Source: Verrucomicrobiota bacterium
Lineage (GTDB): Bacteria > Verrucomicrobiota > Verrucomicrobiia > Limisphaerales > UBA11358
DNA: 64,000 nucleotides
Reading direction: 5' to 3'
Assembly (NCBI GenBank): GCA_049523455.1
Contig: JBEKMW010000003.1
Coordinates: forward strand, 3,736 to 67,735
Of the stretch, positions 1-57,367 are shown piece by piece. The notes beneath the pieces are model-generated. The model searched no databases, was not told the DNA's origin, and saw only the letters and a list, made by a program, of their open reading frames with translations. Position 1 is the stretch's first letter; every line of letters starts with the position of its first letter. The position numbers were made by a program, and so were the translations under genes.

Positions 1-508
1 GCAATTTAAGGCCCCATAATGCCCTGATTAAGGAATCGCGCCCGGCCAGGCGGAGCCGGTTGATTGGGCGGAAACCAAAACAAAGCGGAAAGCGCAAACA
101 ACAAGGAAACGAAAACAAAGGATTTCATCCGCGAATGACCCCGAATTAACGGGAAAACGGAAGTTGGGAACCAGGCCCGCCTCGGGCGTTGCTGCATACG
201 CCCTCGCGGGCAGTTCTTGGGGGCAAGAAGCATCTCCAATGCCTTCGACGCGACACGCACTCTCCGCGCTTCAAAGAACCTCGATTACGAGGACGAGGAC
301 GCTATAGTATTTCAACAAAAACGGTGGCCGAATTGCGAAGGACTATCAAGACGCCCGCCAGGTTTTGGAGTGCGCCAGCCCTCTGGCGCTTTGATACATA
401 GTCAAAGTACGTTGGGAAAGCGGCGGAGGGCCGCCGCACTCCAGGACGCTGGCGCGTTATCCATTCGCACTTTGCGTGGTGGGCGACGGCGGATTTTCTT
501 GAATCGCT

Positions 509-18202: not shown

Positions 18203-18629
18203 TTAACGATTTACGCCAACGCGTGGCCTCACGGGCTGCAAAATAATCTTCTCGCCCCAGGCGATTGCGGACCTGGAGGAGCGAAGCAGTTCCTCCTGAT
18301 CCAAACTTCGCACTCCGCAATCGGTAATCGGCATTCGGAAAACGGCAATCCCTCGACGGTATCTGCGGCCAGATACGGCCTTCCCATGGACCGGGGGAAC
18401 ATCCAATGCTTTGGCCGATGAACCGGCATAAATGCCGCGCGCCGGAAATTAGGACAGCGGCGCGCACGGAGTGACGCGCCCTACCGAGGGGGAGGCAGCG
18501 TCTAATTTGGGCACTCGCGGTCGGGACGACCGCGGCCATCCGCGAGACGCGGGTGCTACATTATGAAATTCGGACACTACCCAGCCCTGCGGCGGCTTGA
18601 CGATTCGCGTGAAACGTCCTAATTTTGAG

Positions 18630-18785: not shown

Positions 18786-20780
<1,995 letters not shown>

Positions 20781-20782
20781 AT

Positions 20783-20960
20783 CCCAACGGGATTCCATCA
20801 TTCAGCCCAGGGTTGGTGCGCAGCGCCTACCCTGGGTCTTTGATTCAACCCTTTCAGGGTTGATGATTTTGTTGTTCGCTTACCCAGCGTAGCCGTTCCT
20901 CGCCTAGCCGGCTCGGACCGGCAACGCTGGGCTGAGTGATTGAATCCCATTGGGATTCAT
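20783..20960. repeat. Inverted pair of a dispersed palindromic repeat family flanking a terminator-like hairpin
   Basis: The left copy TCCCAACGGGATTCCATCATTCAGCCCAGGGT... matches the reverse complement of the right copy ...ACGCTGGGCTGAGTGATTGAATCCCATTGGGATTC. Each copy contains its own small hairpins. Confidence 0.7.
20845..20876 (+). terminator. Candidate intrinsic terminator downstream of thiC
   Basis: Hairpin TCAACCCTTTCAGGGTTGA followed by TGATTTTGTTGTT. Confidence 0.35.
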
Positions 20961-24616: not shown

Positions 24617-24949
24617 CATTCCGCAATCGGAAATGACGCGTCTGATTTGCCAATAACGACAGCCAAAGTAGATGAGCGAGTCGGCAGACAATTCTCCCTC
24701 TCCTGGGGGAGAGGGCCGGGGTGAGGGCGGGATAAAGAAACCAACATCATTTCCACAAAATATCGCCTCCAAATAAGGACCTTTCAGGCGAGGCACCGTA
24801 TTTTCCCGCCAAGGCGGGTTGCACAAAGATTTCGCCCGCAGACAAGCAAAAGCTTGCAGAACCGCAGTCCGCAAGGAAAAATGAGGCGAACGAACTAAGG
24901 CAAACAATCACCGTTGCGCCGCCCCGATGATGCGTGAGAAAAATCGTCT

Positions 24950-30751: not shown

Positions 30752-31453
30752 CTATTTGTTGAACCGGAAGTTCGTCACGTCGTAGTCCTGCATTACGTAT
30801 TGCTTGGTCTCCAGGCGCATTTTGCCGGCGCGCTTGGCCTGCGTTTCGCCGCCCGCCGCCACAAAATCCGCATAGCTGATGATTTCGGCCCGGATGAATC
30901 CCTTCTGGATGTCCGTGTGGATCGTCCCGCCCGCCTCCCAGGCCGTGATGCCCTTGCGAATCGGCCAGGCGCGGTTCTCCTTGCCGCCGACGGTCAAAAA
31001 GCAGATGTAGCCGGCCTCGCCAAACGCGCGCAGCAGCAGCGCATCGGGATTCTCCGCGTCCGCCAGCCCGGCCACGGTAACGGGTTTGGCCGTAAAAAAG
31101 TTGTGCGCCGCGACCGCCTGCAAATCCTCCGGCGCCAGGCCGGAGTTGAAAACGAATTTTTCCTGTTCGAGCAACCCCTTGATTTTCTCCAGGGCCTGCC
31201 GCTCGGCCGGCTGCGGGTCGCGCCCCAGGCGCGTTTCCACAAATTCCAGGTCTTTCAAAATCAGATCCGCCCTGCCCTCCACCGAAGCCAGAATGGCGTC
31301 GGCGTCCTGCAACTCGTCCTGGCCCACCACGTCCACCTGGGCCTGGCTTTTCTTGTCCGCCTCCACCAGTTTGTGCGCTTCATCCAGGCGCGGGTCTTTG
31401 AGGTTATGCTTGCCGGTTTTGATTCCGGTCACGCCAAATAATGCGATTTTCAT
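30752..31453 (-). CDS. YchF-like protein retaining the C-terminal DUF933/TGS-like domain but lacking a P-loop
   Basis: C-terminus FLTVGGKENRAWPIRKGITAWEAGGTIHTDIQKGFIRAEIISYADFVAAGGETQAKRAGKMRLETKQYVMQDYDVTNFRFN aligns with YchF. N-terminus MKIALFGVTGIKTGKHNL replaces G.PNVGKST. Length is 233 aa versus about 363. Confidence 0.75.
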   Translation of the reverse strand: MKIALFGVTGIKTGKHNLKDPRLDEAHKLVEADKKSQAQVDVVGQDELQDADAILASVEGRADLILKDLEFVETRLGRDPQPAERQALEKIKGLLEQEKFVFNSGLAPEDLQAVAAHNFFTAKPVTVAGLADAENPDALLLRAFGEAGYICFLTVGGKENRAWPIRKGITAWEAGGTIHTDIQKGFIRAEIISYADFVAAGGETQAKRAGKMRLETKQYVMQDYDVTNFRFNK

Positions 31454-31490
31454 GGTTATTCATGGTTATTCACCGTTATTCATGGTTATT

Positions 31491-34400
31491 TCAGGCCGGG
31501 CGCAAAATATGGGTCAAATACTGCCCGGTAAAGCTTTCGGCGCAGCGGGCTACCGTCTCCGGCGACCCTTGCGAAACGATTCGGCCGCCAGCGTCGCCGC
31601 CTTCCGGGCCCAGGTCAATGATCCAGTCCGCCGTCTTGATCACATCCAGATTGTGCTCGATCACGACAAGTGTGTTGCCCGCGTCACGCAGTTTGAACAG
31701 GACTTCGAGCAGCTTGGCCACGTCGTGAAAATGCAGGCCAGTCGTCGGCTCGTCCAAAATATAGAGCGTGCGGCCCGTGGCTTTGCGGCTCAACTCGGCC
31801 GCCAGCTTGACGCGTTGCGCTTCGCCGCCGCTCAAGGTCGTCGCCGCCTGTCCCAATCCGATGTAACCCAATCCCACCTCGGCCAGCGTCAGCAGCGGAT
31901 CGTAAATCTGCGGCACGGCGCGGAAAAAACCCACCGCCTCGTCCACCGTCATCGCCAGCACGTCGGCGATGTTTTTGCCTTTGTAGGTGATTTCCAGCGT
32001 CTCCCGGTTGTACCGCCTGCCGCCGCACGTTTCGCAGGTCACATAAACCGCCGGGAGAAAATTCATCTCAATCTTCAGCACGCCGTCGCCCTCGCATTTC
32101 TCGCAGCGGCCGCCCTTCACATTGAAACTGAACCGGCCGGGCGCGTATCCGCGGATTTTGGCCGCCGGCAGTTTGGCGAACAAATCGCGGATGTGATTGA
32201 ACATGCCGGTGTAGGTGGCCGGATTCGAGCGCGGCGTCCGGCCAATCGGCGTCTGGTCAATCACAATCACCTTGTCCACCAGCTCGAACCCGCGCAAGGC
32301 ACGGTGCGCCCCCGGCGTTTCCTTGGAACCGTAAAATTTGCGGAACAGCGCCCGGCGCAAAATGTCGTCCACCAGCGTGCTCTTGCCGGACCCGCTTACC
32401 CCGGTGATGCACGTGAACAGCCCCAACGGTATCCGCGCGTCAATGTTCCGCAGATTGTTCTCCCTGGCGCCGAGCACTTCCAGCCAGCCGCGCGTTTCCG
32501 ACGGATTCAGCCGGTTTCTGGGAATTGGAATCGTCAGTTCGCCGTTGAGATACTTGGCCGTCAGCGAATGCGGATTCTTCAAGATTTCCGCCAACGGCCC
32601 CGCCGCCACCAGTTCGCCGCCGTGAACGCCCGCGCCCGGCCCCAAATCCACGATGTAATCCGCCTGCCGGATGGTCTCGGCGTCGTGCTCGACCACCAGC
32701 ACCGTGTTGCCGAGGTCGCGCAAGCCTTTGAGCGTGGCCAGCAGCCGGTTGTTGTCGCGCTGATGCAGGCCGATGCTCGGTTCATCCAGGATGTAGAGCA
32801 CCCCCACCAGGCCGGCGCCGATCTGCGTGGCCAGCCGGATGCGTTGCGCCTCGCCACCGCTGAGCGTGCCGCTTTCGCGGTCCAACGTGAGATAGCCCAG
32901 GCCGACGTTCTTCAAAAAGCCGAGCCGGGCGCGGATCTCCTTGATCACCTCGTGCGCAATTTTTTCCTCGAACTCAGTCAGCCTAAGCCCGGCAAAAAAT
33001 TCATCGGCCTTGTCCACGGACAGGGCGCAGACGTCCATGATGGAAAAACCGGGAATCTTGGGTGGCACAGGTCTCCGGCTTGTCGCTTTCGGCGAAGTCT
33101 TGGGGGAGCCGTTTGCAAACGCAGGAGGAGTTTCGGGCGGGGCGCCCGAAACGGCAGGCGGGGCGCCTGCGCTCCCCAAAGTCACCGCCAGGATCTCCGG
33201 CTTGAGCCGTTTGCCTTTGCACACGTCGCAGAATTGCGGACTCATGTACGGCTTGAGCCGGTTGCGCACGAATTCGCTTTCGCTTTCAGTGAAGAGCCGC
33301 CCCAGATTCGGCAGCACGCCTTCGAACGGCCGGCTTACCGTGTGCAGGCTGCCCGCCCGCCAGAAGCGAAAATCCACGTTGTCCTCCCCCGAACCGTGCA
33401 ACAGCGTTTTCTTGAAGTCCTCCGGCAGGTTTTTCCACGGAGTTTCCAGGCTCACCTGAAAATGCGCGGCCACGGAACGCAGCATGGCCTTGTAATAAAT
33501 ATTCATCCGCTTGCCGGAGCGCCGCCACGGTTGGATCGCGGCCTCCAACGGCACTTCCGGGTCGGGCGCCACCAGGTTTTCGTCGAATATCATCTTCTGA
33601 CCGAGCCCGTGGCAGACGGGACAGGCGCCCGCCGGCGCGTTGAACGAGAAATGTTTCGGTGTCGGCGGATCAAAACTCTTGCCCGTGGCCGGTGAACACA
33701 TTTTGTTTGAATGCAGTGTTTCGATCCAGTCTTCGTGGCGGCGGGCATCCGTGCCCGCCGTAGAGGGCGGCATCTTGCCGCCTGGGATTGGCGATGAAGT
33801 CTTGGAGACCATGCGGCTTGCCAGAGCCTTTCCACCGGGCAGGATGCCCGGCTCCACGGCAGGCACGGATGCCTGCCGCCACTGCTCCGGCAACTGGTGC
33901 AGCGTGAACATGACCCCTTCGCCCCAGCGCAAGGCGGTCTCCACCGAATCGCCCAGCCGCACTCGAATCTTGTCGTCCACCACCAGCCGGTCCACCACCG
34001 CTTCAATGCTGTGGAATTTCTTCTTGTCCAGCTTCACGCGCACATTGGGATTGCCCAGTTCGATGAATTCGCCGTCCACTCTGGCCCGGACAAACCCCTC
34101 GCGCGCGAGGCGTTCGAGCACGTCGCGAAATTCGCCCTTTTGCCGCCGCACCACGGGCGCCAGCAACATCACCTTGGTCTTGGGTGGCAGCGCCAGAATC
34201 TTGTCCACAATGTCGCTGGTGGTTTGCGCCACAATCGGCACGCCCGTGTCCGGACAATGCGGGTGGCCGATGTGCGCGTAGAGCAGGCGGAGGTAATCGT
34301 AAATTTCGGTGGTGGTGGCGATGATCGAGCGCGGGCTGCTGCCGGAACTTCGTTGTTCAATCGCAATCGCCGGCGAAAGGCCCTCGATGAAGTCCACCTC

Positions 34401-34619
34401 CGGCTTCTGCATCTGGTCCAGGAACTGGCGGGCATAGGCTGAGAGGCTCTCGACGTATTTCCGCTGGCCCTCGGCGTAGATGGTGTCGAACGCCAGCGAC
34501 GACTTGCCGCTCCCGCTCAGGCCGGTGATCACCACCAGCCGGTCGCGCGGGATTTGCAGCGTGAGATCTTTGAGATTGTGCTCACGCGCGCCGCCAATGC
34601 GGATGAATTCCTTGCTCAT
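31491..34619 (-). CDS. uvrA: Excinuclease ABC subunit UvrA
   Basis: Starts MSKEFIRIGGAREHNLK (ATG at 34619). Walker A motifs GLSGSGKSS and GVSGSGKST, two LSGGEAQR signatures, and zinc-finger CPVCHGLG and CETCGGRRY. Length is 1042 aa versus about 940 typical. The longest ORF reaches 34772. Confidence 0.97.
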   Translation of the reverse strand: MSKEFIRIGGAREHNLKDLTLQIPRDRLVVITGLSGSGKSSLAFDTIYAEGQRKYVESLSAYARQFLDQMQKPEVDFIEGLSPAIAIEQRSSGSSPRSIIATTTEIYDYLRLLYAHIGHPHCPDTGVPIVAQTTSDIVDKILALPPKTKVMLLAPVVRRQKGEFRDVLERLAREGFVRARVDGEFIELGNPNVRVKLDKKKFHSIEAVVDRLVVDDKIRVRLGDSVETALRWGEGVMFTLHQLPEQWRQASVPAVEPGILPGGKALASRMVSKTSSPIPGGKMPPSTAGTDARRHEDWIETLHSNKMCSPATGKSFDPPTPKHFSFNAPAGACPVCHGLGQKMIFDENLVAPDPEVPLEAAIQPWRRSGKRMNIYYKAMLRSVAAHFQVSLETPWKNLPEDFKKTLLHGSGEDNVDFRFWRAGSLHTVSRPFEGVLPNLGRLFTESESEFVRNRLKPYMSPQFCDVCKGKRLKPEILAVTLGSAGAPPAVSGAPPETPPAFANGSPKTSPKATSRRPVPPKIPGFSIMDVCALSVDKADEFFAGLRLTEFEEKIAHEVIKEIRARLGFLKNVGLGYLTLDRESGTLSGGEAQRIRLATQIGAGLVGVLYILDEPSIGLHQRDNNRLLATLKGLRDLGNTVLVVEHDAETIRQADYIVDLGPGAGVHGGELVAAGPLAEILKNPHSLTAKYLNGELTIPIPRNRLNPSETRGWLEVLGARENNLRNIDARIPLGLFTCITGVSGSGKSTLVDDILRRALFRKFYGSKETPGAHRALRGFELVDKVIVIDQTPIGRTPRSNPATYTGMFNHIRDLFAKLPAAKIRGYAPGRFSFNVKGGRCEKCEGDGVLKIEMNFLPAVYVTCETCGGRRYNRETLEITYKGKNIADVLAMTVDEAVGFFRAVPQIYDPLLTLAEVGLGYIGLGQAATTLSGGEAQRVKLAAELSRKATGRTLYILDEPTTGLHFHDVAKLLEVLFKLRDAGNTLVVIEHNLDVIKTADWIIDLGPEGGDAGGRIVSQGSPETVARCAESFTGQYLTHILRPA
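33050..33176. repeat. Second in-frame repeat-derived insertion in uvrA
   Basis: Encodes GSAGAPPAVSGAPPETPPAFANGSPKTSPKATSRRPVPPKIPGF, inserted between ILAVTL and SIMDVCALS. Contains two adjacent perfect hairpins: GTTTCGGGCG-GGG-CGCCCGAAAC (33130-33152) and GCAGGCG-GGG-CGCCTGC (33154-33170). Confidence 0.65.
33738..33880. repeat. About 143-bp imperfect palindromic (MITE-like) element inserted in frame in uvrA
   Basis: The left arm GCGGGCATCCGTGCCCGCCGTAGAGGGCGGCATCTTGCCGCCTGGGA matches the reverse complement of the right arm TCCACCGGGCAGGATGCCCGGCTCCACGGCAGGCACGGATGCCTGCCGC. It encodes ASVPAVEPGILPGGKALASRMVSKTSSPIPGGKMPPSTAGTDARRH. Confidence 0.75.
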
Positions 34620-34786: not shown

Positions 34787-34866
34787 TGGTGTTACCTGGT
34801 GTTACCCGGTGTTACCGGGTCTGGGGTCTGGGGTCTGGGGTTTGGGGGTCTGGGGTCTGGGGGGGA
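34787..34866. repeat. Tandem microrepeat block (10-mer GGTGTTACC(N) x3, then 8-mer GTCTGGGG x about 6)
   Basis: Read directly from TGGTGTTACCTGGTGTTACCCGGTGTTACCGGGTCTGGGGTCTGGGGTCTGGGGTTTGGGGGTCTGGGGTCTGGGGGGG, which lies upstream of uvrA. Confidence 0.9.
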
Positions 34867-37068: not shown

Positions 37069-37654
37069 AACATCGGCACGGCCCCGTGAAAACTCCGGAG
37101 GCCACAAAAGCCGCAACGCCTATGGGTAGTAAATTTGTCAAACCAAAATTAAAATCGATTTTGGGAAAACGGGTAGTGCCCTGATTTCAAAATTCGGGCA
37201 GGGCGGGTTCCGACTTTTCGGGACCCGCCGCAACTGCGGGACCATGGTGCGCACGGAGTGACGCGCCCTACCGAAGTTCGGACACCACTCTAAAAAGCTG
37301 AAGGATTTAACCGCAGAGAACGCAAAGATCGCAGAGAGGGACCCAAACAATTCTTTGTGTTCTCTGCGTTCTTTGCGGTTAGATCCGGTATTTCTGATTC
37401 TGACCTTCCCTGTTTTCCTCGTCTCCGTGGTCGCCGGTCGCTGTAAGGCGTGGATTTGGATGACGGCAAGTTCATTTTGCTGCCCCCATTTTTCTGCCTT
37501 TGTCTGTTGTCATTTTGTCAGGGATATTCAGGCAGAAGCGGGAAACTGCGCCTCAAGGCGGACATTTAAGAGTCAGAGACAGGCGCGACGCCTGTCCTAC
37601 TGCTACAGCGTGGCGGGCCTCGTCTCCTACGGGTGAGCAGTTTCCGGGGGTCAG

Positions 37655-38503: not shown

Positions 38504-38615
38504 AAAGGCATGTGGCCCGATTCTTTGCCGGCGCTCAGACTAGAAGTTTGCCAAGGCATGAACGAGCCGAAACTTCATTGGGGTGCATCTGACAAGTTCC
38601 CCCGGCGCGCGGCCT

Positions 38616-38637
38616 TCAGGCCGCTTCGGCGCACGAA
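38616..38637 (-). repeat. Hairpin box copy 1 (CGCGGCCTTCAGGCCGCTTC core)
   Basis: Exact 20-nt core, 113 nt upstream of the FkbM ATG, in sense orientation on the minus strand (GAAGCGGCCUGAAGGCCGCG). Confidence 0.9.
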
Positions 38638-38743
38638 AGCAGTTGGATCAAACGATGGAGGTATCAGCGGGCGGTGCGGAAGCGGCGTAAACGCCGCGCG
38701 CCGCGAGGCTTTGCGTTTGAGGGAATTTCCCAGATGCACACCT

Positions 38744-41700
38744 TCATTGCACAATCAGGCGGTAGAAGCGTTTCGTGCCCAGCGGCGCGGTTAGCGAACC
38801 ATTGTCCACAAATTGGAACACCCCGGTGGCGGACGTGATGAGTCCGGGCACGGTGGTCCAGCTTGTGGCGGGCAAGGCCGGCGTCCATTGCACCTGGAAT
38901 GACTCATAGGTCGGCGCCGTCCACTGCAGGGTAATGCTGTTGTTCGCCCACGTGACGTTCTTGAGATTGGGTATGACCAGCGGCGTGGTCACGGCGGCCT
39001 GCAAGGCCAGACCGAAGTAACCACCGCCCGCCACCATCACCACGTTGCTCAATCCGGACGGCACATTCGTGTCACCCCCCGTTCCGTCACCCCACGCGAT
39101 CACGGTGCCGTCGCTCCGCAACGCCAGATTATGATAATCGCCGGCCGCTATCGCTTGCACACTGTTCAGGCCCGCGGGAATGCTGGTTTCCCCAAAGAAA
39201 TCGTCACCCCATGCTTTCACCGTCCCGTCACTCCTCAGCGCCAGGCTGTCCTCCGCTCCGCCGGCCACGGCGACAGCGTTGGTCAGGTTCGCCGGAACGT
39301 TCGTCTCGCCGTCAAAGCCATAACCCCAGGCCACCACCGTGCCATTGTTTTCCACCGCCAGGGTGTGGGACCACCCGGCCGCGATCGTCACCACGTTGCC
39401 CAGTCCCGGCGGAATGTTGGTCTGGCCATACGTGTTGTCGCCCCACACAGTCACCGTGCCATTGCTCTGCAACGCCACGCTATGATCGTACCCCGCCGCA
39501 ATCGCCACCACGTTGCTCAACCCCGTCGGCACATTCAGTTGGCCGAAGGTGTTGTCGCCCCAGCCGACGACGGTGCCATCGCCCGCCAACGCCAGGCTGT
39601 AGTAAACCCCCGCCGACACCGCCACCACGTTGCTCAGTCCGGGCGGAATGTTCGTCTGTTCATACGAGTCGTCGCCCCAGACGGCCACCGTGCCGTCATG
39701 GTTCAGCGCCAGGGTGTGATATTCGCCCGCCGCAATCGCCACCAGGTTGGTCAAACCGGCCGGCGTGATGAGTTGTTCGCTGCTGTTATCGCCCCAGCCC
39801 ACGATGCTGCCGTCAGAGAATTCCTGGTCCGCGCCGTAAGCCGCCCCAACCGCGTTGCTGACCACCAGCCGGAAGTAATAGCCGTGGCCGTCAAGCAGAT
39901 TGGCGATGGTGTTGGTCACCCACACCACGCCGTAGCCGTTCCCCACGTTTACCGGCGCGGTTTGATTGGTGAACAGCGGGTTGGGACCCCATTGGAACCA
40001 GGCCAGCGAAGGCGTTCCATTCGGCGACGCAAACCCGTTGAGCTCGGCGTTGGTGCCCGTCACCCAGGTCGCCGGGGCGGTGAACGCGGCGGGCCCCGGT
40101 ATCGGCAGCACGATGACCTGGAACGTATTGGTTGCGCCCAGTGGCGGCAGTCCGTTGTTGAACACCACGGTCGTGATGAGATTGGTCGTGCTCTCCTGCG
40201 CCGCCGTCGGCGTCCAGGTAATGACGCCGGCGGGCGAAATCGTCATGCCCGCTGGCGCGCCCGGCAGAGTGTAGGTCAACACCTGCGGCGGCGAATACAC
40301 GTCCGTGGCGTTGTTCGTCACCGTGAGCGCAGACAACGCGAAAATGGTTTGATTGGGCGGCGTGGCCACAAACACCGGCGGAAGGTTGGTGGCCAGACCC
40401 AGCAGCTCCAGCCGATACAGGCGCGCAGACCCAAACCCGCCGGTCTGGGAACCGTCGTCGAAGAACTGGAACAGGCTGTTGCTGGGGGTGATATAGGTCG
40501 TATAGGCAATGATATTGCTGAAGGCGTTCCACGCCACCGGCGGCGTCAGGCTGGCCGCCCACTGCAACTGGAATAGATCGTTGGTCGCTCCATACCAGCT
40601 TAACAGGAACCCCGGCTTGCCGCCGATAACCGTGTTGGTGATATACAGCGTGTCAATCGGCGGCGGCGGAATTACCAAATGGAAATTCACCGCGATGGCA
40701 TAATTGACCGTGGCGCTGCCGGTGTTTTGCACGCCCAGCCAGTAGGTTGCGCCCGCCGGCAGCAAGGGCGTTCCGTTGTTGGTGGCGATCACCGCCTGCC
40801 CGCCAGTTGTGCTGGACAGCAGGGTGAGGTCGCCCGGATTGGAAATGCTCGGCGGCAGGTTCGTGCTGAACCAGACGTTTACCGGCTGCGGATTGGCATA
40901 TAATAGAATATTGGTGGCGTAATCGGCGTTGACCGGCACGCTGACCTCATACCACGTCAGGCCGCCCGGCGTCAGCGAGTTGGTCTGTGGCCGGCTGCTC
41001 TGGGTCTGGCCGGTGCCGAGCGTGTAGGGCGGAAGCACGGTGAGGCTGAAGCTGTTGGTCGCGCTCAGACTCTGGTTGACCTGCACGTAAGGATTGGTGT
41101 CCGTCACCACCGTCGTGATGGTGTAAACATGGTTGGTCTGTGCCAGCGTCGGCATCCAGAGGATGACGCCGTTGCTGGAAATGCTCATGCCCGCCGGCGG
41201 GGCGATCAAGGCATAGGTCAGCGGATTGGGCAGGTCCGGATTGGTCGCCGCGTTGGTTATGGCCACCGTGCTCAGGGCATAGACGTTCTGGTTGGGCGGC
41301 GTGGCCAGGAATACCGGCGGCGAGTTGGTGAATACCCCCAGCACCTCCAACCGATAGAAGCGCGTCAGCCCGAATCCGCCTGTCTGCGAACCGTCGTCGA
41401 AGAACTGGAACAGGCTGTTGTTGGGCGTGAGGTACGTCGTGTAGGTGATGACGTTGGTAAACGCGTTCCACGCCACCGGCGGGGCCAGGCTGCCCGCCCA
41501 TTGCACCTGGAACAGATCGTTCGTCGGCCCGTACCAGCTCAGCAGGTAGCCGATCTTGCCGGCGATGTTGGTGTAAACGATGGCCACCAGGTTGGTCGGC
41601 GGTGGCGGCGGCACCAGGTGGAATTTAACCGCGATGTTGTACGTCGTAATGCCGTTGGTTTGCACGCCCAGATAGTAAGTTCCGCCAGGCACAATAAAGG

Positions 41701-44700
41701 GCGGCGGGGGATTGGTACCCAACACGACGAAACCATTGGTGCCAGTCGGATATGTCCCATCCGGCAGGAGTAACACCGCAGTACCATTGGTGGTCGGCGG
41801 AACGTTGGTACTCCACCACAGATCCACCGGCGCGGTGGACGAAATCAGGAAATTCGTTGCCAGATCCGCGTTCGTCGGCACGGCGATGGTTGTCCAGGCA
41901 ATGCCGTTGGTCACCGGGGGCGGCGGCGGCACGAGGTGGAAATAGACCTGCACATTGTAGGTGGTGAGGCCATTGGTCTCCACGCCCAGCCAGTAACTCC
42001 CGCCCGGCACAATGAACGCCGGCGTGGTGTTCGTGCCCAATACATACAAACCATTGGTGCCGGTCGGATACGTCGCGTCCGGCAGGAGTAATACCGCATT
42101 ATTATTGGTGGTCGGTGGTGTGTTGGTGGTCCACCACAAATCCACCGGCGCAGTCGCCGAAATCAAATCGTTCGTGGCCCAATCCGCATTCGTCGGCACA
42201 TTAACTTGTATCCACGCGACGCCGTTGGACGGAGGTAGCACCAGATGGAAATTCACCTCGATCGCGTAGGTGACATTGGCCGCGTTGGTGTTTTGCACCG
42301 CCAGATAGTAGGTTTGGCCCGGCACCAGCGGCGGCGTGCCGTTCGTGCTCAGCACCACGGCTCCGCCGGTGGAACTCGAGAACAACGCGTCATCCGGCGG
42401 GTGGCCACCTGCCGGAAGGGTTGCCTGGTTGAACCACACGTTGACCGGACCGGTCGCAAACAGCAGCAGGTTTGTGGCGAAATCCGCGTTGGGCGGCACC
42501 GTGATCGCGTAATAATCCATGTCGCCGCCGGTGAAGCTGTTGGTCCCGCCGTTGATGGTATTCGTCACCGGCTGCCCGCCGCTGATGGGCGCCGGTTGCA
42601 GCGACGACGCGAAGTTCACCTCGATGGTGTAGTTCACGCTGGGACCGTTCGTGTTCTGCACGCCCAGGTAATAAACCCCGGCCGGCACCAGCGGCGGATA
42701 ATTCGTCGGCGTCAAGGTGCTCACCCCGTTGGTGGCGCTCCCAATCAGCAGCGCGTCACCCGGAAAGCCCGTGGTGGGCGGATTATTGGTGCTGTACACC
42801 AGATTCACCGATCCGCTGGCCGAGAGCAGCAGGTTGAAGGCGGCGGCGGCGCCCGCCGGCACGTTGACCTGATACCAACTGATGGGGTCTCCGCCGGTAG
42901 TGCCCGCCACCGTGCCACTGGTCGGCTGGCCCGGATTGAGAATCGGCAGGCTGGTCAGATTGGTGTTGGCAAACGTGAACTGCAGTTGCCAGCTCAGAAG
43001 TTCGGGCGGCGGATTCGTCGCGCCCACCCGGTCGTCCTGAATCTCCAACTGCCAAAGCCCCTGCGCGCTCGTGTTGTCGAGGCTGCTGATGTCCTGATCG
43101 GGCTGGTAGTACAGATTATTGGCCACGCTGGTCACCGTGAAATTGTCCAGCAACATCCCCGGTTCCAAGCCCGTGATTTCCAAAGGCGTTCCACTCTGCG
43201 TGGCGGTGAAGGTGGTGGTATAGACCTGCCAAGTCATATTGTTGCCGTTAATGACAGCGGGAGTGCCGCCGTTCAAACTGATTCCCGCTTCCGAAAGACT
43301 CAGCGCCGGCGAACTGGCGAATAAGGCATGATCAAATTTGCCTTCGCCGCCTTTTTGATAAATAGCTTTGATTTCGGACGCGCTAAGAGTGCGGTTGTAA
43401 ACGCTCATTTCGTCCAATCCGTTCCATTGGCTGGGTTCACTTGCATTAACGACACGCCATCCTATGTTTACATTATAACCGGGCGTGGTTTGAGGCGTAA
43501 ATTTGCCGCTCCAATTATAGTAATTCACTGGCACAATGGCCGCGCCATTGTAATAGAGCTTCCCTTGCACCAAATACTGGTTGTAAGTCGTGGCGACATG
43601 CTGATAAGAGCCGGCTTGGACCAGGTTGGCCGCACTGGAAAGCCAATGGTCGCCGCCACCGGTGTCTATGTAATTGGCATACAGACAACCCGCGCCTGTG
43701 CCGTAAGGACCTGTTCCTGGCCCCGTCGAAATATTCAAATGAGGGCCATAGGCGGAACCGTTATCCCACTCCAAACCAAACCGCTCTGTATTCAGGACCG
43801 ACGGATTGATCCAACCTTCGATGGTCATACCGGGCCCGGTTCCAACATTCAAGGTGGAATTGCCGGGCGCCCCGACATACATGTCGGTGCCCAAAAGCGA
43901 AAAGGCCGAGCCAACTTCACCATTGGTATAACTTCCCCCGTTATACATTGTGCCATTATTGTTAAATCCCGAACTATCGAGCGTATTGCTCTCCCCGCGC
44001 CACCAGCCAACAATTCCCGGCCCGCGATAGGCAAACGACAGCGTGTAAGTCTGGCCGGCCACCGTCGGCAGGTTGTTGGAAATCACGCCGCTGGCCAGCG
44101 CCAGGAAATTGCTTCCGGCATAGGCATTGGTGGGATCGGTTACCACGCTGACCTCGTTGCTGATAACGGTCCAGCGGTTGCCAAAAGTCTGTCCATTCGT
44201 ATAGTCGCCGGCGGCCGTTGTCTCAAACCCGTCAAAGAACACGTTGCTCACGGCGCCACTCGGCACAAACGGCGTGGGCGCAAACTTGATGGGCGTGGTC
44301 GTCAGGTTCGTATTTTCAGTGAACGTGAGATACAGGAAATTCGTGGTCACGTTGGTCACGGAGAGCGTGGCGAACACGTTGCTGACGGTTACCGTGAAAT
44401 TGCTGACGATCAGGCTGTCCAGCAACATGCCGGGTTCCGTGCCCGTGATAATCAACTGGTTATTGCCGTTCGTAGGCAGGTTGCCGGAGGCGGTAAAGGT
44501 CTGCCACGTGGTATTGTTGCCATTGATGACTACCGTTCTACCGTTCGTATTCACAGACGCTTCCGCCAGGCTGAGCGCCGGCGAATTGGAGAATACGCCA
44601 GCGTCAAATTTCCCTCGCGTGCCCAGGTTATTAATGGCTGCAATTTCAGCGTCCGAAAGCGCACGCCCATAGACACTGAGTTCATCGGTCAATCCCTGAT

Positions 44701-47700
44701 ATGTCTCTCCCAGGGCAACCGTCTGGCTGATGCGTTGCCCAATACTTACGAAGGGATAAGCCGTTTCCGGCGTAAAATAGCCGAAATTATTCGATGCCAC
44801 CATCGTCCCATCCACATAAAGGCGGGCAGCACCGGACACTTTATCGTAGGTTACGGCCGCATGTTGAAAACGGCTCGTCACAAACAATCCATTCGGACTG
44901 GTGATGGTATGGCCATTCCCCGATGTGTCTCTGAGATTTGAGAATAAATTAATTCCCGACCACAGTTCCGGGCCGTCCCCAATGGGAGAGGGGCTGGCCA
45001 TCGAGTATTCTATCATCGGCCCATTTGCAGCATTGACATAGGCATCTTTTATCCAGCATTCCAGAGTGATGCCGCTGCCGTATGCGCCCACATTCAAACT
45101 TGGCGAGTTGGAAACCAGGACATAACCGCTGTTGTCGCCATAAAATTGAAAGGCTTCGCCCACTTCACCGCCCGAATAGCCAACCTCTCCGGATATGGTT
45201 CCATTATTTCCATTGATACTTTCCACGGTGTTACTCTCCGCCCGCCACCAGGCGGCAATCGCCGGCCCGCGATACGCAAACGTAAACGTGTAAGCCCCGT
45301 TGGTTATTGTGGAAGGGAAAGTATAAGACAGCCCGCCGTTGGCAAGGGCCAGAAGATTCGTGCCCTGATAGGCATTGGTCGGGTCGGTGACCACACTGAC
45401 CTCATTCGTGGTCACCGTCCAACCGCCTATGGTCGCGCCGGCGGCAAAATCCGCCGCCATCATGCCTTCAAAGTTGTTGGTTACCACCACCGTGTTCGTC
45501 ACCAACACCGTATAATTCGTCACCACCGTCGTTATATTGGTCTCCACGATGGATATCCCCGCGCCGCTCGTGCTCATGCCCCCCTCGTTTTCCATCAGCA
45601 AATACCGCGTGCCGTTCGGGCTGATCAACTGGAACACCAGGTCCGAAATCCGCGTGTCCGCCACCGCAATGCCCACGCTCAGCGACTGGATCAAACTCGG
45701 GTTCGCCACCAGAATGGAACTGTAAGACACCGCGTCATCCGGAATCACCGTTGGCCCGCCCTCGTAATCCACATTGGTAATCGCCGACTGCGAAAAAGCC
45801 AGCGTGGCGTAGATATGAACGTTCGCCGCGACCAGGCTGGGATTGTAGATGCCGACATAATAAGTTCCCGGCGCCAGCGGCGGGCCCACCGAAACATAAT
45901 TGGTATAAAAGTCAACGGGCCCGCCGGAAACGGGGAAGTCGTTAGTCAACCAGGCTTCCTCATTGGTGTCCGCGAACGTCGGGTCCGAGCCGTAATTGAC
46001 ATAAAGTTGCAACGGCGGTGACGATTCAGGCGGATACTCCTCGGCCACCACCGTCAGGTTCGTGTACCCCACCGGCACGTCTTGGAAGGTATAGACCCAA
46101 CTGCCGGGCTCAACGGTCACGTTAATGCCGTGGGTGAGCGGCGTATAAGGCACGAGCGTCATGGTCAAGGCCGCCACATAACCGGTATGCGTCAGCGCCG
46201 TGTCCGCCTCGGTCATCATCCATACCCCGATGCCCTGGCTGCCGAAGAAGCTCTGCAAGCTGCCCGGCCCATCGGACAATATCGCGCCCTGCACATTCGT
46301 AATCCCGCCGTCACTGTAGGCAAGATTGTACGGTCCCGGCGGGTTGCCCAGATCATCATGGTTGTTGAGCACCACGCTCGTGCCGTTATGATTGAGCGTG
46401 CCAATCAGATCGCCGTAATTCTGATGCCAAATCGAATCATCCACAATTACCTGTCCCACCTCCATCGGATACAGCGCCAAGCCGAAAGTGTAGGCGTAGC
46501 CCGGATTTTTCAGGTCGCCGTCGGGAATGTTATTGGGCAGCGGGATGCCGTTGACTATCTGATTGCCATTGTTCATCTCGCTGAATGGCGTCGAAGTAAA
46601 CACCGACAGGAAATCGTACTCCGCCGCCATCTGCCGCTCCGAATACACGCCAATGTAATACACCTGGCTATGCGTCGAATTCGTGTCCACCACGAATTGC
46701 GTCCCGCTCAGGCTCAACGACGCCCCGTTGAACACCGGCGGCGTCCCCGCCGACGCGCCGATTTGCGTCCCGTTGATGCAGTTCGAAATCGTCACCGGCG
46801 ACAGCGTCAGCAAATTCGAATCCGTCGTCACATACAGGTCAATGTCCGCCCCCGGCGTGGTTGCGTTGTCCACGTTCGGCTGGTACACGCCGATCCGCGG
46901 AATCGAAAGTGTGTTCGGCAGGAACGTGATGAACGCCGCGTTGGACAGGCTCAATCCGTTGGTGGTCAACTGCGAATTCGTCACCACGTAGAAATGCCAC
47001 TGGTTGGTCATGCCCAGTGTATCCACCGCATCGGCCGCGTAAGGCGAACCCGGCGCGAAGTCTGCCTGGTTGGTCCCCAGCAACGGCGTGCTCGCCCCGG
47101 CAAACTGGTCCATCAGCGGCGCATTGGTGGTAACGATGTAGGTGATGTCCTGGTCACCCGTCGGATTGTAAAGCTGCCCGCCATCCGCGACCGTCATGGC
47201 GTTGGTCACCTCGCCTTCCCCGCTGGAAATCACCAGCGCGAAATCCTGCACCACGTTGTTCGAGTTCGCCGTCACCGCGTTTACATTCACGTCGCGCGCC
47301 AGCACCGTGATCGAATAATTCGTCCCCACCGGCTGCGAAATATAGACGTTCTTGACGTTGTTCACGTAATCGTAAGCCACCACATCGTTCGTCCCGTGCG
47401 GGTTGTTGAAATCTCCCGACGAAATGTCATTGCCATAATAAACGATCGGCGGATTGGCGCCGTAATTGGTCACCACCAGGTCCAGGTTGTTCACCAGCTT
47501 GATCGCCGCCGCCGGGTCGCCGGGCGGGTCCGTCCAAGCCAGCGTCACCCGCAACGGCAGCAGCGTCTGCGCCGTGGCGCTGGTTATGTTCACCAGATAC
47601 GTGTGGCTCCCGCCCGTCGCCAGCGCGTTCGTCGGATTCTGGTCCAGGATAAACTCCGAACACCCCGCCCCGATCTGATTCGTCAATCCCGCCGGCACCG

Positions 47701-50032: not shown

Positions 50033-50103
50033 AGGAATCAAGGGTTAATGTTTCATAATTCAACCGCTAACAAAAGTAAAGCCAAACCGCCCAAATCCTC
50101 GCC

Positions 50104-50184
50104 TAAAAAACTATTTAAACCGCGAAATACGCAAAATACGCGAAAGAAAACGCTTTTTTCGCGTGGTTGGCGTATTTCGCGGTT
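50104..50184 (-). terminator. Long hairpin with T-tract between the pseudopilin operon and the giant gene (terminator/attenuator candidate)
   Basis: Perfect 15-bp arms AACCGCGAAATACGC (50118-50132) and GCGTATTTCGCGGTT (50170-50184). On the minus strand these are followed by TAAATAGTTTTTTAGG. It may equally be a dispersed repeat. Confidence 0.35.
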
Positions 50185-54974: not shown

Positions 54975-55925
54975 TCATGGGTACGCCGTAAGATCAACAT
55001 TGGGTATCATCACCCGCTGCCGGAATATGTGCAATCCGCCCGCCTGGCCGGACAGGTAATTGTTTTGCGCCGCCGTCCCGTTCGGCCACGTGCCCGCCCG
55101 CTGGATCACGTTGTCCTCCAGCAGCCCCATTTGCACCTCCACCGACGCCGGCAGCGCGTTGCTGAACAGGTAAAACCCCGCCTCGCCCCAGGCTGGCGGC
55201 ATAAACGTCGCCCCGTTCGTCAGAATCAGTATGTTCGTGTAGGGATACGTATAGTAGTTGGTCATCCAGTAACCCTGGTGGTTGTAAATCCGCGCCTGCA
55301 AATCCACCACCCCGTCGAGCAGGTGGCTCCAATTGACGTTGGTGTAGCCCAGCGGCGTTTCCACATTCGCCAGAAACGTGTTGAACAGCACCACCGGGTT
55401 CGGCGTCTCCTCCACGTTCGTCGTCACGTAATACCGGTACAGCGGATAAAAATCGTTCGTGGCTCCCGGGAAAACCGCGTAGCCCGTGCCCACCCACACG
55501 GGATGCCCGTTCAAGTTGTTCTGGGCCAATATGAATATATTCTCCAGCAGGTTCGTCCGCGTGGCCCCGCTGCCCGGCAGCGTGTTCGCCAGCGGCTGCC
55601 CGCAATCGAAATTCGTGTACGCGTAAAAATTCACCGCGTTGGCCATCGAATAAGCGAAAAGGTTGGAAAAACTGTTCCAGCTCCCCCCGCCCTCCGACGC
55701 CGTCATCTGCCGCAGGTCGGCCGCCATCATGTCCATCGTCGCCCGTCCGCCTTCCAGCACGTCGGTCTGGGTGACGCTCGCGCGAAATGCCCTCTGCGTG
55801 AAGTCGAACACCGCCATCAGCGCCAGCACGATCAGCGCCAGCAGGCTCACCACCAGCATCACCTCAATCAGCGAAAATCCGGTGCGAGCATTTACGATTT
55901 CCGATTTACGATTTTCGATTGCCAC
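54975..55925 (-). CDS. Minor pseudopilin (prepilin-type N-terminal methylation domain; GspJ-like by position)
   Basis: Contains ARTG-FSLIEVMLVVSLLALIVLALMAVFDFTQRAF. An in-frame GTG at 55925 gives a 16-aa leader. The ORF-track start (GTG at 56429) would add about 170 aa made only of dispersed repeats. Confidence 0.7.
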   Translation of the reverse strand: MAIENRKSEIVNARTGFSLIEVMLVVSLLALIVLALMAVFDFTQRAFRASVTQTDVLEGGRATMDMMAADLRQMTASEGGGSWNSFSNLFAYSMANAVNFYAYTNFDCGQPLANTLPGSGATRTNLLENIFILAQNNLNGHPVWVGTGYAVFPGATNDFYPLYRYYVTTNVEETPNPVVLFNTFLANVETPLGYTNVNWSHLLDGVVDLQARIYNHQGYWMTNYYTYPYTNILILTNGATFMPPAWGEAGFYLFSNALPASVEVQMGLLEDNVIQRAGTWPNGTAAQNNYLSGQAGGLHIFRQRVMIPNVDLTAYP

Positions 55926-56029
55926 CGGTGCGCGGCGTTCACGCCGCTTCAGCGTGCCCAGCGGTGCCTGGCCGGAAAATTCCTGAATCTCCAGCCGGCG
56001 CCACGATGAAGCGGCATAAATGCCGCGCG

Positions 56030-56235
56030 CCCCATGAACCGGGGAAACATCGAACATCGAACATCGAACGCCGAACATCGAATGAAAGCAACGAGTCCTC
56101 ACCTCATCGGCCTTCGCCTGGAGGCTACGGCCCGATAGGCCCTGACCCTCTCCCCTCCCATCCGAGTTAATACCCTCACCCTGTCCCTCTCCCATCAGAA
56201 TGGGCGAGGGAATAGGAGAGGGAACAGCCAGCGGG
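56030..56235 (+). repeat. Composite dispersed repeat, copy A
   Basis: CCCCATGAACCGGGGAAACATCGAAC(heptamers)...CTCACCTCA...CCCTGACCCTCTCCCCTCCCATCCGA...GGGAACAGCCAGCGGGG. It aligns with the reverse complement of 59291..59419, with two extra internal segments. Confidence 0.8.
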
Positions 56236-56425
56236 GCCGAATGGTGGCCCGGGAGACTGGCAGCTTGCGACAGGTTCAGGGGTTCTATGGGCGAACTTGT
56301 TGGGGGAAATCTCTTCCCTCTCCTCTCTCCCCACTCCCCTCTTCCCTCTTCCCTGCCGGTGCTGCGCGACCGCCGGGCTTCTCCGCCCCGCGCATCGGCT
56401 GCAGTAAATTTTTGCAAATTGAGTT

Positions 56426-57367
56426 TCACGGCGTCGTGACCACGTTGTTAAAGGATTGCGGCTGGTAAAAATACAGCCATTGGTTGTCCACATTCGTCTG
56501 AAAAATCATTCCGCCCACCATCGTCCGGCACGTCCACCGGCCCGGGCCCACCCCGCCGGCGGGATATAGCGGCCACAGAAACGTGAGCCGCAATTCATGC
56601 AGGCTGGCGGCCAGTTGCTGGTTGTACGGCGGCACGCCGCTGTAATTAATCGCCGTGTCCAACAGGTTCGTGTCCATCGCCATCGGCGCATTCACGCAAA
56701 ACACCAGGTAACTGAACGCGCCCGCCAGCACGTCCGCGTTGGCCTGCGGCGGCTTCTCCGTCGCCGGCCCGCTCATGGACCGCACGTACGCCACCACGTG
56801 ATTGCTGTAGCCCCCGCTCAACAAATTGTTCGTCGGGTTGTACTCCAGGTCCAGATATTCGGGCATGCTCATCAGCCCGATGATGCGCAGGCCGTTGGTC
56901 AGCGGGAAAAACGTCGAAGTCGGTATTCCCGGTTTCGGCCGGATCTGCGAGCCTGAGTAGGTGTAACCATCCACCTGCGCCGGACCGGGCGCCGCCCGGC
57001 CGTTCCGAAACTCCACCCAGTAGTTCGTGATGGCATAGACGTAATTGGTCAGGTCATCCAGCCCTTGCGCCCCGCCGCGCATCGCTTCCATCAGCATGGT
57101 CGCGTCCTGGTTGATCACCGTCTGCTCCCGATTGTCGCCCTGCGTCCGCATCCCAAACGGCAGCACCGCGATGATGGACACCAGCGCGAACCCGATGATC
57201 GCCAGGCAGATCGCAATCTCAATCATGGTGAAGGCGCGGACATTGCCAATTGCCGATTGCCAATTGACGAATGAGGGACGCGGACCAGCAGCAGCACGCC
57301 GGTCGCGGTTGCTTCGATCGGGTTCAATCGGCACTTGGCAATCGAAAATCGAAAATCCCAGTCTCAT
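56426..57367 (-). CDS. Minor pseudopilin (prepilin-type N-terminus; GspI-like by position)
   Basis: Contains GNVRA-FTMIEIAICLAIIGFALVSIIAVLPFG. The ATG at 57367 overlaps the upstream stop (ATGA). The only other in-frame canonical start is a GTG 34 codons before the Phe. Confidence 0.7.
   Translation of the reverse strand: MRLGFSIFDCQVPIEPDRSNRDRRAAAGPRPSFVNWQSAIGNVRAFTMIEIAICLAIIGFALVSIIAVLPFGMRTQGDNREQTVINQDATMLMEAMRGGAQGLDDLTNYVYAITNYWVEFRNGRAAPGPAQVDGYTYSGSQIRPKPGIPTSTFFPLTNGLRIIGLMSMPEYLDLEYNPTNNLLSGGYSNHVVAYVRSMSGPATEKPPQANADVLAGAFSYLVFCVNAPMAMDTNLLDTAINYSGVPPYNQQLAASLHELRLTFLWPLYPAGGVGPGRWTCRTMVGGMIFQTNVDNQWLYFYQPQSFNNVVTTP

Follow-up and report, generated by a model that had tools for sequence, protein, structure and literature searches.

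REPIN-like inverted REP pairs lie in frame at two sites of a verrucomicrobial uvrA gene

The uvrA gene and its two inserts

The 64-kb stretch of DNA analyzed here (the window) carries on its minus strand an open reading frame, 31491..34619, that encodes a class I UvrA protein of 1042 amino acids beginning with MSKEF. Two inserts are located within this gene. The start motif (M/V)(SK/AQ/AH)(E/N)FI(R/K)IGGAR was found to be common to all 11 orthologous uvrA genes that were read from DNA. A protein with 100% identity to the window UvrA (P0001) is named excinuclease ABC subunit A, and its precomputed Pfam families are UvrA_inter and UvrA_DNA-bind. The window UvrA matched the solved UvrA chains 2r6f, 9gxk, 3zqj, and 3pih with E = 0 and aligned over its full length to the first three, except at the two inserts. 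[quoted passage not shown] As the initial annotation of this DNA had stated, the translation retains the Walker A, signature, and Walker B motifs of both modules as well as the C-terminal CxxC pairs. That annotation also called the gene essential, a label that is not justified: uvrA is normally non-essential, and E. coli uvrA mutants are viable.

The alignment to the Bacillus UvrA chain 2r6f falls into three blocks and skips query residues 238-299 and 484-523. Canonical UvrA proteins (960-1000 amino acids; nine diverse single-length sequences were compared, the representative list consisting mostly of double-length UvrA paralogues) have short loops here: site 1 spans about 4-10 residues and site 2 about 2-3. 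The excess over canonical UvrA is about 47 plus 40 amino acids, and an earlier estimate of about 100 extra residues is therefore roughly right. Site 1 is located in the UvrB-binding domain, close to its C-terminal end, and site 2 comes after zinc module 2's second CxxC pair. Judged from the sequence alignment to solved UvrA structures, both sites would be surface loops. An AlphaFold2 model of the window UvrA, built with 30 close homologues, had a mean pLDDT of 34 and was uninformative on loop exposure.

The insert at site 1, denoted E1, is a REPIN-like REP doublet of 148 nt (33735..33882, minus strand) that encodes WRQASVPAVEPG...STAGTDARRH. It was delimited by its inverted repeat, its fold, and the alignment of copies. 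This segment had been described as a 143-bp palindrome at 33738-33880; the palindrome was upheld and its limits were refined. The left REP unit (33829..33882, minus strand) consists of the tag GTGG followed by the hairpins GGCAGGCA-tccg-TGCCTGCC and CCGGGCA-tcc-TGCCCGG. The right unit (33735..33788, minus strand) is an inverted copy of the left unit and ends in CCGCCAC. Between them lies a variable centre (33789..33828, minus strand), which is shorter than in other copies and cannot be aligned between orthologues. The inverted-repeat arms (33735-33779 and 33838-33882) are 45 nt long, 84% complementary, and separated by a 58-nt spacer, and the RNA fold has an energy of -104 kcal/mol (z = -8.3), with none of 200 shuffles being as good.

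Some 30 full-length copies from elsewhere could be aligned with E1 along its entire length, with the termini GT[A/G]GCGG...CCGC[T/C]AC. The family consensus begins with GTAG-CGGCGGGCAtccgTGCCTGCCG..., whereas the tag of the window copy is GTGG. In the uvrA frame this tag contains TGG (Trp), as opposed to the TAG stop of the consensus. TGG was also found in the other uvrA copies and in an in-frame copy within a biotin-ligase-family gene (L049). Both end tags of the window E1 read GTGG/CCAC, which probably cripples cleavage by the transposase. Two E1 copies in uvrA were measured, that of the window (148 nt) and that of L052 (166 nt). Both lengths are 1 mod 3, so that an extra indel or a particular junction is needed to keep the frame.

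The insert at site 2, denoted E2, is a REP doublet of about 117 nt (33060..33176, minus strand) that encodes GSAGAPPAVSGAPPET...TSRRPVPP. The fold and the copy alignments placed its limits slightly inside the interval 33050-33176 of the initial annotation, whose two adjacent perfect hairpins were found again. These are GCAGGCG-CCC-CGCCTGC (7 bp, 33170-33154) and GTTTCGGGCG-CCC-CGCCCGAAAC (10 bp, 33152-33130). Together with the tag G-GGAG-C they form the intact left REP unit (33130..33176, minus strand). The remainder (33060..33129, minus strand) comprises the centre and a decayed right unit, the reverse complement of which reads G-GTGG-C-ACAGGTCTCCGGCTTGT.... The two hairpins and an outer stem give a fold z of -4.0. 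Compared across its entire length, the insert shares 68% identity with its site-2 counterpart in the orthologue L058, and its last 21 nt in the window, AGCCGGAGACCTGTGCCACCC, match the site-1 terminus of L057 at 18 of 21 positions when read by eye.

In the window translation both inserts are in frame and stop-free, in agreement with the initial annotation, and the ribosome would read through them as loops of about 49 and 39 residues rich in Pro, Gly, Ala, Ser, and Arg. Strong hairpins (-104 kcal/mol) could in principle stall or redirect ribosomes, and the inserts could be absent from the mature protein, as an intron, an intein, or a translational hop, or uvrA could be a pseudogene. We regard this as highly improbable. 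All inserts read as DNA are a multiple of three in length and stop-free, including those of L052 and L055, which were found by DNA pattern and not by gene calls. The tag is changed from TAG to TGG exactly where it lies in frame. Outside the inserts, purifying selection on uvrA is strong: the core UvrA of 120 orthologues has 86-100% amino-acid identity, compared with 46-78% identity at four-fold sites (pairs measured). No intein family was found in the precomputed Pfam lists. A search of Rfam gave no intron and no RNA family over threshold, only hairpin matches far below it.

Dispersed copies and associated transposases

A 22-nt pattern from the E1 arms was found at 56 loci in genome contigs, nearly all of them from Verrucomicrobiota or Limisphaerales MAGs. 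Twenty-two of these loci are within one MAG, JANNAO01, whose uvrA (L052) holds the same insert. Full E1 copies are 165-172 nt long and have arms of about 55 nt in common, while the centre and the flanks differ. The E2 hairpin pattern was found at no fewer than 120 metagenome loci, of which only two among the loci listed are uvrA; among the matches listed, 111 of 118 matched places are outside uvrA. Full-length E2 copies outside uvrA include L138 (654-776) and L090 (6773-6895). Elsewhere the E2 unit consists of G-GTAG-C plus two hairpins, and its flanks are unrelated and AT-rich (GC 0.39 vs 0.72 in the element). Several further insert types were also found to match non-uvrA loci.

Most E1 copies are outside genes, with no long ORF spanning them. 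The long ORFs over the repeat copies L021, L043, L084, and L028 match no Pfam family and look spurious, and in L022 and L035 the repeat is upstream of real domains, not within them. Nucleotide-level similarity to repeats outside uvrA proved to be extended for both inserts, with most copies outside long ORFs. The initial description of the inserts as dispersed repeats was borne out in related genomes and metagenomes but not inside the 64-kb window, where no second copy of E1 or E2 was found and sensitive blastn gave chance-level matches only.

The left unit of E2 lines up position by position with 87 units found at other loci. Among these 88 units the tag is GTAG in 47, GTGG in 20, and GGAG in 17, the last being that of the window copy. 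The first hairpin occurs in 16 stem variants, and four of its seven stem pairs covary, with both sides changed; only units with 6 or more of the 7 positions complementary had been admitted, a filter that raises the paired share but leaves the number of pair types unaffected.

These data bear on the possibility that the inserts are low-complexity, lineage-specific linkers produced by replication slippage, with a likeness to intergenic repeats that is a compositional coincidence. The insert peptides are rich in Pro, Gly, Ala, and Ser, and simple tandem repeats do occur in some orthologues, such as GGAAATC heptamers at site 2 of L055 and GTCCAAG-like repeats at site 1 of L063 (fold z = +0.8). However, the alignments with non-uvrA copies extend over 117-148 nt and include the termini, with unrelated flanks, and the outside copies are not fragments of uvrA pseudogenes. 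The 22-nt pattern is almost wholly restricted to one phylum, and the hairpins covary. We give slippage and coincidence very little credence.

At locus L008, a Y1_Tnp ORF (E = 5.7e-8) is located between E1 copies at 1927-2102 and 2805-2972. Likewise, E2 units flank Y1_Tnp ORFs in L122, L141, L112, L111, L151, L078, and L083. The transposases were found by tblastn with an approximate E. coli RayT query and then confirmed with Pfam; a strict regular expression for the RAYT motif WQxRF gave zero matches. Both the association with transposases and the dispersal are seen in related genomes and metagenomes, and no RAYT gene was found in the 64-kb window. In both families, GTAG-tagged hairpin units occur as inverted pairs and flank IS200-like tyrosine transposase genes. 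The architecture of E1 and E2 is that of REP/REPIN/RAYT systems.

The segments had been called MITE/REP-like. The REP part of this description is correct, since each segment combines two inversely oriented GTAG-type REP units; the MITE part was not confirmed. MITEs such as ERIC, BOX, and Coxiella QMITE1 are, in the accessible sections of two reports (PMC10969869, PMC5896051), likewise small and non-autonomous, have inverted ends, and can lengthen or break into ORFs while keeping the frame. However, their origin lies in DDE-type insertion sequences and they produce target-site duplications, whereas the only associated enzyme found here is a Y1 HUH transposase. We found no DDE-type parent insertion sequence for E1 or E2, and the alignment of about 30 E1 copies with their flanks contained no flanking direct repeat that would indicate a target-site duplication.

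Whole transposase units were also found in frame inside genes for ThrRS, AlaRS, PriA, and MetH. One could imagine that REP/RAYT elements of these bacteria have an in-frame lifestyle within housekeeping proteins, in which permissive loops such as those of UvrA are recurrent landing pads for elements with arms kept constant in nucleotide sequence, REP-transposase-REP units persist as stop-free segments of ThrRS, AlaRS, PriA, and MetH, and the uvrA inserts are the non-autonomous tip of this phenomenon, maybe under functional constraint and not neutral. We put this forward tentatively and consider it rather doubtful. The in-frame units would presumably be expressed through the host gene and, if this is true, would resemble an intein without splicing.

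Turnover and conservation at the two sites

Inserts were found at both sites in all of 120 homologues (83-100% identity to the query), and the flanks are nearly invariant. None of these 120 orthologues has an empty site. The inserts occupy the same two codon positions in all 120 and belong to many unrelated palindromic families. An alignment of orthologues, which the initial annotation had proposed, revealed that the segments are not conserved lineage-specific domains, as unrelated sequences are present there in orthologues; together with the similarity to repeats outside uvrA, the check that the annotation had named as refuting thus turned out in favour of its interpretation. The orthologue inserts read as DNA are palindromic, and for 17 of 22 the fold z lies between -2.6 and -9.2. 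E2-type elements were found at site 1 in P0008, P0009, P0013, and P0107, and many further proteins have them at site 2.

Single-linkage clustering of the insert peptides over-merged them into 7 types per site. On the core tree, at least 30 changes of type are needed per site, a figure that is conservative and depends on a rough tree; much of this change may be due to recombination. Outside the inserts, most 60-nt windows of the L060 and L187 uvrA genes show 97-100% identity. Over some 400 nt leading to the site-1 junction the identity is 100%, and there unrelated inserts follow with abrupt junctions.

Because repeats are involved and the DNA probably comes from a MAG, repeat-induced chimeras in metagenome assembly could in principle produce such patterns. 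Of all the explanations weighed here we hold this to be the least probable, with almost no chance of being correct: P0001 and close variants with the same inserts were present in independent JGI, ENA, and NCBI assemblies, among them contigs of 58 kb to 4.6 Mb, with the frame intact in all.

We consider it likely that both segments are REPIN-like inverted pairs of GTAG-type REPs which lie in permissive loops of UvrA, are read through, and are replaced by unrelated families. Such pairs would be of the kind mobilised by RAYTs, which are IS200/IS605-like HUH enzymes acting on single-stranded DNA hairpins. Selection for a working uvrA would let only in-frame, stop-free versions persist, and in insert 1 the GTGG/CCAC tags would turn an in-frame TAG stop into Trp. 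The two UvrA positions may be landing pads across the clade, at which unrelated REP families swap by new insertion, deletion, or allelic recombination.

The inserts may, as initially suggested, be simply tolerated or else exapted. The E1 arms in uvrA are far more conserved than synonymous sites of the same genes, which would not be expected of a purely neutral passenger. The uvrA E1 copies of five genomes are most closely related to one another. For their 54-nt arms, identity is 93-100% in the pairs that were measured and 86-98% over all five copies, whereas it is 46-62% at the four-fold sites of the E1-bearing uvrA genes, and the centre of the element cannot be aligned. Paired A.T to G.C stem changes in L186 alter residues and keep the pairing. 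Shared site-2 inserts are 86-92% alike, compared with 72-78% at four-fold sites. These observations are consistent with REP hairpins in uvrA being kept by selection for a function, which could be the control of uvrA mRNA translation or stability, a DNA-level role, for instance as a site bound or cleaved by the RAYT or by gyrase/IHF-like factors, or a modified UvrA-UvrB interaction. In the portions available, Di Nocera et al. (PMC3733652) also regard the enrichment of REPs in repair genes as unlikely to be fortuitous. However, near-identical cores were found with unrelated families or simple tandem repeats at these sites, which argues that no particular sequence is required. The arm conservation belongs to the whole repeat family across genomes, and it could stem from gene conversion or arm-to-arm correction. 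Retention for a function is unlikely in our judgement.

Relation to known elements and significance

The closest precedent is in Opitutus terrae, where REP dimers were reported inside uvrA and other repair genes (Di Nocera et al. 2013, PMC3733652). As far as the accessible text of that paper goes, Oter_3168 (999 aa) has REP dimers at amino acids 224-239 and 440-462, the latter starting with GTGVPPVDSG. The phylum and the gene are the same as here, and there are likewise two in-frame REP inserts, mostly dimers, in which GTAG is often mutated to GTGG. GTGVPPVDSG opens both the second O. terrae insert and the E2-type site-2 inserts described here. A comparison based on residue numbers and this shared motif suggests that site 2 is likely the same in both. 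O. terrae differs in belonging to the Opitutales as opposed to the Limisphaerales-like lineage here, in its repeat sequences, and in insert length (16 and 23 codons vs 49 and 39 here). A 43-aa chimera of both published O. terrae REP peptides, used as a query, retrieved no candidate protein. Given this precedent, the uvrA inserts extend a known phenomenon and are not a new category. The rapid turnover of families at two fixed sites and the nucleotide-level conservation of the arms are reported here and are not described in the portions of PMC3733652 consulted; together with the in-frame transposase units, they go beyond the literature searched.

REPINs and RAYTs (Bertels and Rainey 2011, PMC3116915; Quentin et al. 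2018, PMC6006769) are alike in that an inverted REP pair with a spacer forms one long hairpin, in that the copies are dispersed and mostly extragenic (here in related genomes and metagenomes), and in that units flank a single IS200-like Y1 transposase gene. In contrast, the elements described here have two hairpins per unit instead of one, the copies of interest lie within a coding sequence, and their mobilisation is predicted. Rickettsia palindromic elements (Ogata et al. 2000, 2002, reviewed in PMC10969869) are similar in behaviour only. The review, in its accessible sections, describes palindromes of about 100-150 bp in frame in unrelated housekeeping genes; their translated segments are believed to occupy surface loops that leave the protein functional. 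They differ in that they occur in Alphaproteobacteria and that RPE-1 is without a known dedicated transposase, and the recurrent use of one codon position by different families is not mentioned in those sections.

Far from being peculiar to a single species, in-frame REP insertion in uvrA is evidently the rule in this whole verrucomicrobial clade, and it invariably affects the same two codon positions. A conserved repair enzyme here clearly hosts selfish DNA. The inserts provide a natural experiment on which UvrA loops can take 20-90 extra residues, as well as a marker that changes much faster than the surrounding gene. If the constraint on the arms is real, it bears on whether REPs and their transposases serve the host, and the in-frame transposase units in housekeeping genes, if real, bear on the same question.

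Two extra segments in the uvrA gene

The uvrA gene occupies 31491-34619 on the minus strand of the window and its product is a 1042-aa class I UvrA. The initial annotation held that this protein is longer than usual, owing to two in-frame insertions of palindromic dispersed repeats. Solved UvrA structures aligned to the window protein over its full length save two gaps. In the alignment to the Bacillus chain (2r6f), residues 238-299 fell between positions 252 and 261 of the chain, and residues 484-523 fell at its position 443. Six of nine diverse UvrA representatives had ~4-10 residues at the first of these codon positions (site 1) and 2-3 at the second (site 2); three of the nine also had something at the insert position. 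The excess of ~85-90 residues was found exactly at both places named, and the ORF translation showed that both inserts are in frame, free of stop codons, and leave the ATPase and zinc motifs intact.

Insert 1 (33735-33882, minus strand) is a 148-nt imperfect palindrome with 45-nt arms that are 84% complementary and a fold of -104 kcal/mol (z = -8.3). Insert 2 (33060-33176, minus strand) begins with a 7-bp and a 10-bp perfect hairpin, both within an outer stem (fold z = -4.0). The palindrome and the adjacent hairpins described earlier were both present, with coordinates slightly refined. We mapped the sites by sequence alignment to 2r6f and by the domain boundaries of the M. tuberculosis protein (UvrB-binding domain 129-255, insertion domain 290-411). 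On this mapping, site 1 would fall near the C-terminal end of the UvrB-binding domain, before the stem bearing the zinc modules, and site 2 would fall ~15 residues past the second CxxC of zinc module 2. Tandem repeats were also observed around the gene: the decamer TTCATGGTTA (4.2 copies, 31449-31490) fills the short gap that separates uvrA from a ychF-like gene downstream, and two further repeats precede the uvrA start, the decamer TGGTGTTACC (3.4 copies, 34787-34820) and the heptamer GGGTCTG (6.4 copies, 34817-34862, with an alternative scoring as a 22-mer that reaches 34877).

Repeat families and their transposases

No second copy of insert 1 was detected within the 64-kb window. We searched for its family, denoted E1, in one-genome-per-species contigs using the 22-nt arm pattern GGCATCCGTGCCYGCCGTRGAG. 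This search uncovered 56 loci, nearly all from Verrucomicrobiota or Limisphaerales MAGs, including 22 from the related MAG JANNAO01. Full E1 elements are 165-172 nt long, with common termini (GTAGCGG...CCGCTAC) and arms of ~55 nt, and their centres and flanks vary. Most copies have no long ORF spanning them. The uvrA orthologue of JANNAO01 (L052) carries the same element as insert 1 at the same codon, so one genome contains a uvrA copy together with ~20 non-uvrA copies, most without a spanning long ORF. The claim that insert 1 is dispersed was thereby borne out in related genomes, not in the window. In JANNAO01 (L001, L002, L004, L022, L025, L026, L029, L032, and others), the sequence adjoining the E1 termini was conserved between copies, with …AACCCGACTTCCGAA preceding and AATCGCGCCGCACCGCCAGTTCTAT following the element, and E1 is thus embedded in a larger repeat there. 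Full copies also turned up in co-assembly bins, on contigs whose MAGs bear the label Bifidobacterium or Bifidobacteriaceae (L010, L016, L037, and L056); these contigs are probably verrucomicrobial ones that were mis-binned or mislabelled.

The long hairpin of insert 2 (family E2, pattern GTTTCSGGCGYNNCGCCSGAAAC) matched at least 120 loci in metagenome contigs; among the matches listed, 111 of 118 E2 places were outside uvrA, and insert 2 is likewise dispersed. Full-length doublets with the same ends were found outside uvrA, for example in L138 (654-776) and L090 (6773-6895). The 88 units in register follow one plan (G, tag, C, 7-bp hairpin, one base, 10-bp hairpin), with the tag being GTAG in 47, GTGG in 20, and GGAG in 17. 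The first hairpin had 16 stem variants, with four of its seven pairs changing on both sides, and the upstream flanks were AT-rich and mutually unrelated. In the window, the left unit of insert 2 fits the plan exactly with a GGAG tag, and the right unit is a decayed copy of the GTGG type.

Both families were associated with IS200-like Y1 transposases. In L008, two E1 copies enclose such an ORF (Pfam Y1_Tnp, E = 5.7e-8), and in many E2 loci Y1_Tnp ORFs are flanked by E2 units. REPs, REPINs, and RAYTs are defined by GTAG-tagged hairpins, their arrangement as inverted doublets, dispersal, and an adjacent tyrosine transposase (PMC3733652, PMC3116915, PMC6006769). We file both inserts under REP/REPIN, with copy number and transposase known from related genomes rather than the window's own, and they can be named REP doublets, from two families that are both linked to RAYT-like transposases. 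The alternative that they are classical MITEs was rejected, because no target-site duplication was visible in E1 copies aligned with their flanks and no DDE-type parent was found. REP doublet is a more exact name than the earlier label "MITE/REP-like". Rickettsia palindromic elements behave similarly, but their likeness to these inserts is in behaviour alone.

Among the loci fetched by the E2 hairpin, long housekeeping ORFs were found to contain whole units of E2 REP, Y1 transposase, and E2 REP, in frame and without stop codons. The hosts were ThrRS, at the same position in all three cases (L141 8823-10796, L066 1946-4513, L112 5463-7364), AlaRS (L078 11876-14912, L083 4029-7124), PriA (L151 188-3457, L108 1109-2269, and a third, frameshifted case in L147), and MetH (L111 1136-5827). 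Pfam detected host domains and Y1_Tnp in one translation in all five scanned ORFs (L141, L112, L078, L151, and L111), and the HUH and catalytic tyrosine motifs were visible in the unit translations. No description of such units inside housekeeping ORFs was found in the literature searched.

Probable recurrent insertion and turnover at two sites

All of the 120 closest homologues (83-100% overall identity to the query, 86-100% core identity among themselves) had both sites filled by inserts, with flanks that hardly vary. The inserts were of many unrelated kinds, with lengths of 22-67 and 17-89 residues between anchors. Of 22 inserts examined at the DNA level in 11 orthologues, 17 were palindromic (fold z -2.6 to -9.2) and two were simple tandem repeats. 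Several other insert types matched non-uvrA loci, including intergenic positions of the window (18434-18485, 24670-24744, 37241-37272, and 37568-37600) and a leader region upstream of a pilin-like gene (56173-56233). E2-type elements occupied site 1 or site 2, depending on the orthologue. A conserved lineage-specific domain would be the alternative reading; the occurrence of many unrelated insert kinds, several of which match non-uvrA loci, and of E2 at either site, indicates instead that the loops are recurrent landing sites.

On a tree of the insert-free core, a rough parsimony count required insert type to change at least 30 times at each site. Outside the inserts, most 60-nt windows of the L060 and L187 uvrA genes were 97-100% identical, with 85-93% at the 5' end and in a few more windows. 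Identity was 100% over ~400 nt up to ...CAGTTGCCGG, and the two genes had unrelated inserts with abrupt junctions at both sites. This patchy identity suggests that allelic recombination, besides fresh transposition, carries inserts between lineages.

In L052, site 2 (2094-2369) is filled by a tandem pair of different palindromic elements, which together make an insert of 92 residues; judged by eye, the second resembles the kind of repeat seen at window 366-443. Beyond uvrA, the window also contains palindromic REP-like elements and short tandem repeats that belong to several unrelated kinds. They lie between genes (366-443, 1653-1724, 20780-20957, and 50118-50184), inside an unannotated stop-to-stop ORF (38580-38742), and in a dense cluster (55816-56354, 57242-57356) in leader regions upstream of type IV pilin-like genes at ~55.8-57.4 kb. 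A giant minus-strand ORF (38744-50044, ~3766 aa) contains long tandem repeats of 117/234 and 318 nt (39335-39811 and 41597-42199).

Reading frame, arm conservation, and precedents

Read in the frame of uvrA, the E1 consensus would open with TAG, which is part of its GTAG tag. In uvrA itself, the E1 copies end in GTGG and CCAC, placing Trp instead of TAG. The same tags were found in a full in-frame E1 element in L049 (4989-5163; ORF 4805-5914, minus strand), located after the catalytic domain of a biotin/lipoate protein ligase family gene (Pfam BPL_LplA_LipB), BirA-like by our own reading. Such ends are what translation through the element predicts, which argues against splicing or bypass. Many site-2 E2 copies keep an intact GTAG, because the tag there is read G-GTA-GCx.

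Five genomes carry uvrA copies of E1 whose nearest relatives are one another, and common tags, common junctions, and a common loop variant make these copies look orthologous. Their 54-nt arms were 93-100% identical in one set of pairs and 86-98% across all five copies; four-fold sites of the same genes were 46-62% identical and the E1 centre was unalignable. Shared site-2 inserts, too, exceeded four-fold sites in identity. Such conservation of the arms is not what a neutral passenger predicts. It could come from selection on the hairpins, from gene conversion, or from re-insertion. In the L186 copy, paired A.T to G.C changes keep the stems and alter the peptide. The literature searched did not describe the arm conservation, the way in which many families use two fixed codon positions across the clade, or the fast turnover of inserts at these sites.

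REP insertion in uvrA is already known in this phylum. A survey of GTAG and CGTC REPs (Di Nocera et al. 2013, PMC3733652) reports REPs inside genes, many of them replication and repair genes, with the highest number of intragenic REPs in the verrucomicrobium Opitutus terrae. According to the survey, each of the two O. terrae uvrA genes contains a double REP insertion, in which mutation of GTAG to GTGG is frequent. The survey's table places REP dimers of Oter_3168 (999 aa) at 224-239, which would be close to site 1 here, and at 440-462. The second dimer starts GTGVPPVDSG, the opening motif of E2-type site-2 inserts such as that of homologue P0021, and on this shared motif 440-462 is very probably the same site as site 2. 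The initial annotation read the inserts correctly in substance, and their interest would rise if the arm constraint and the in-frame transposase units hold up.
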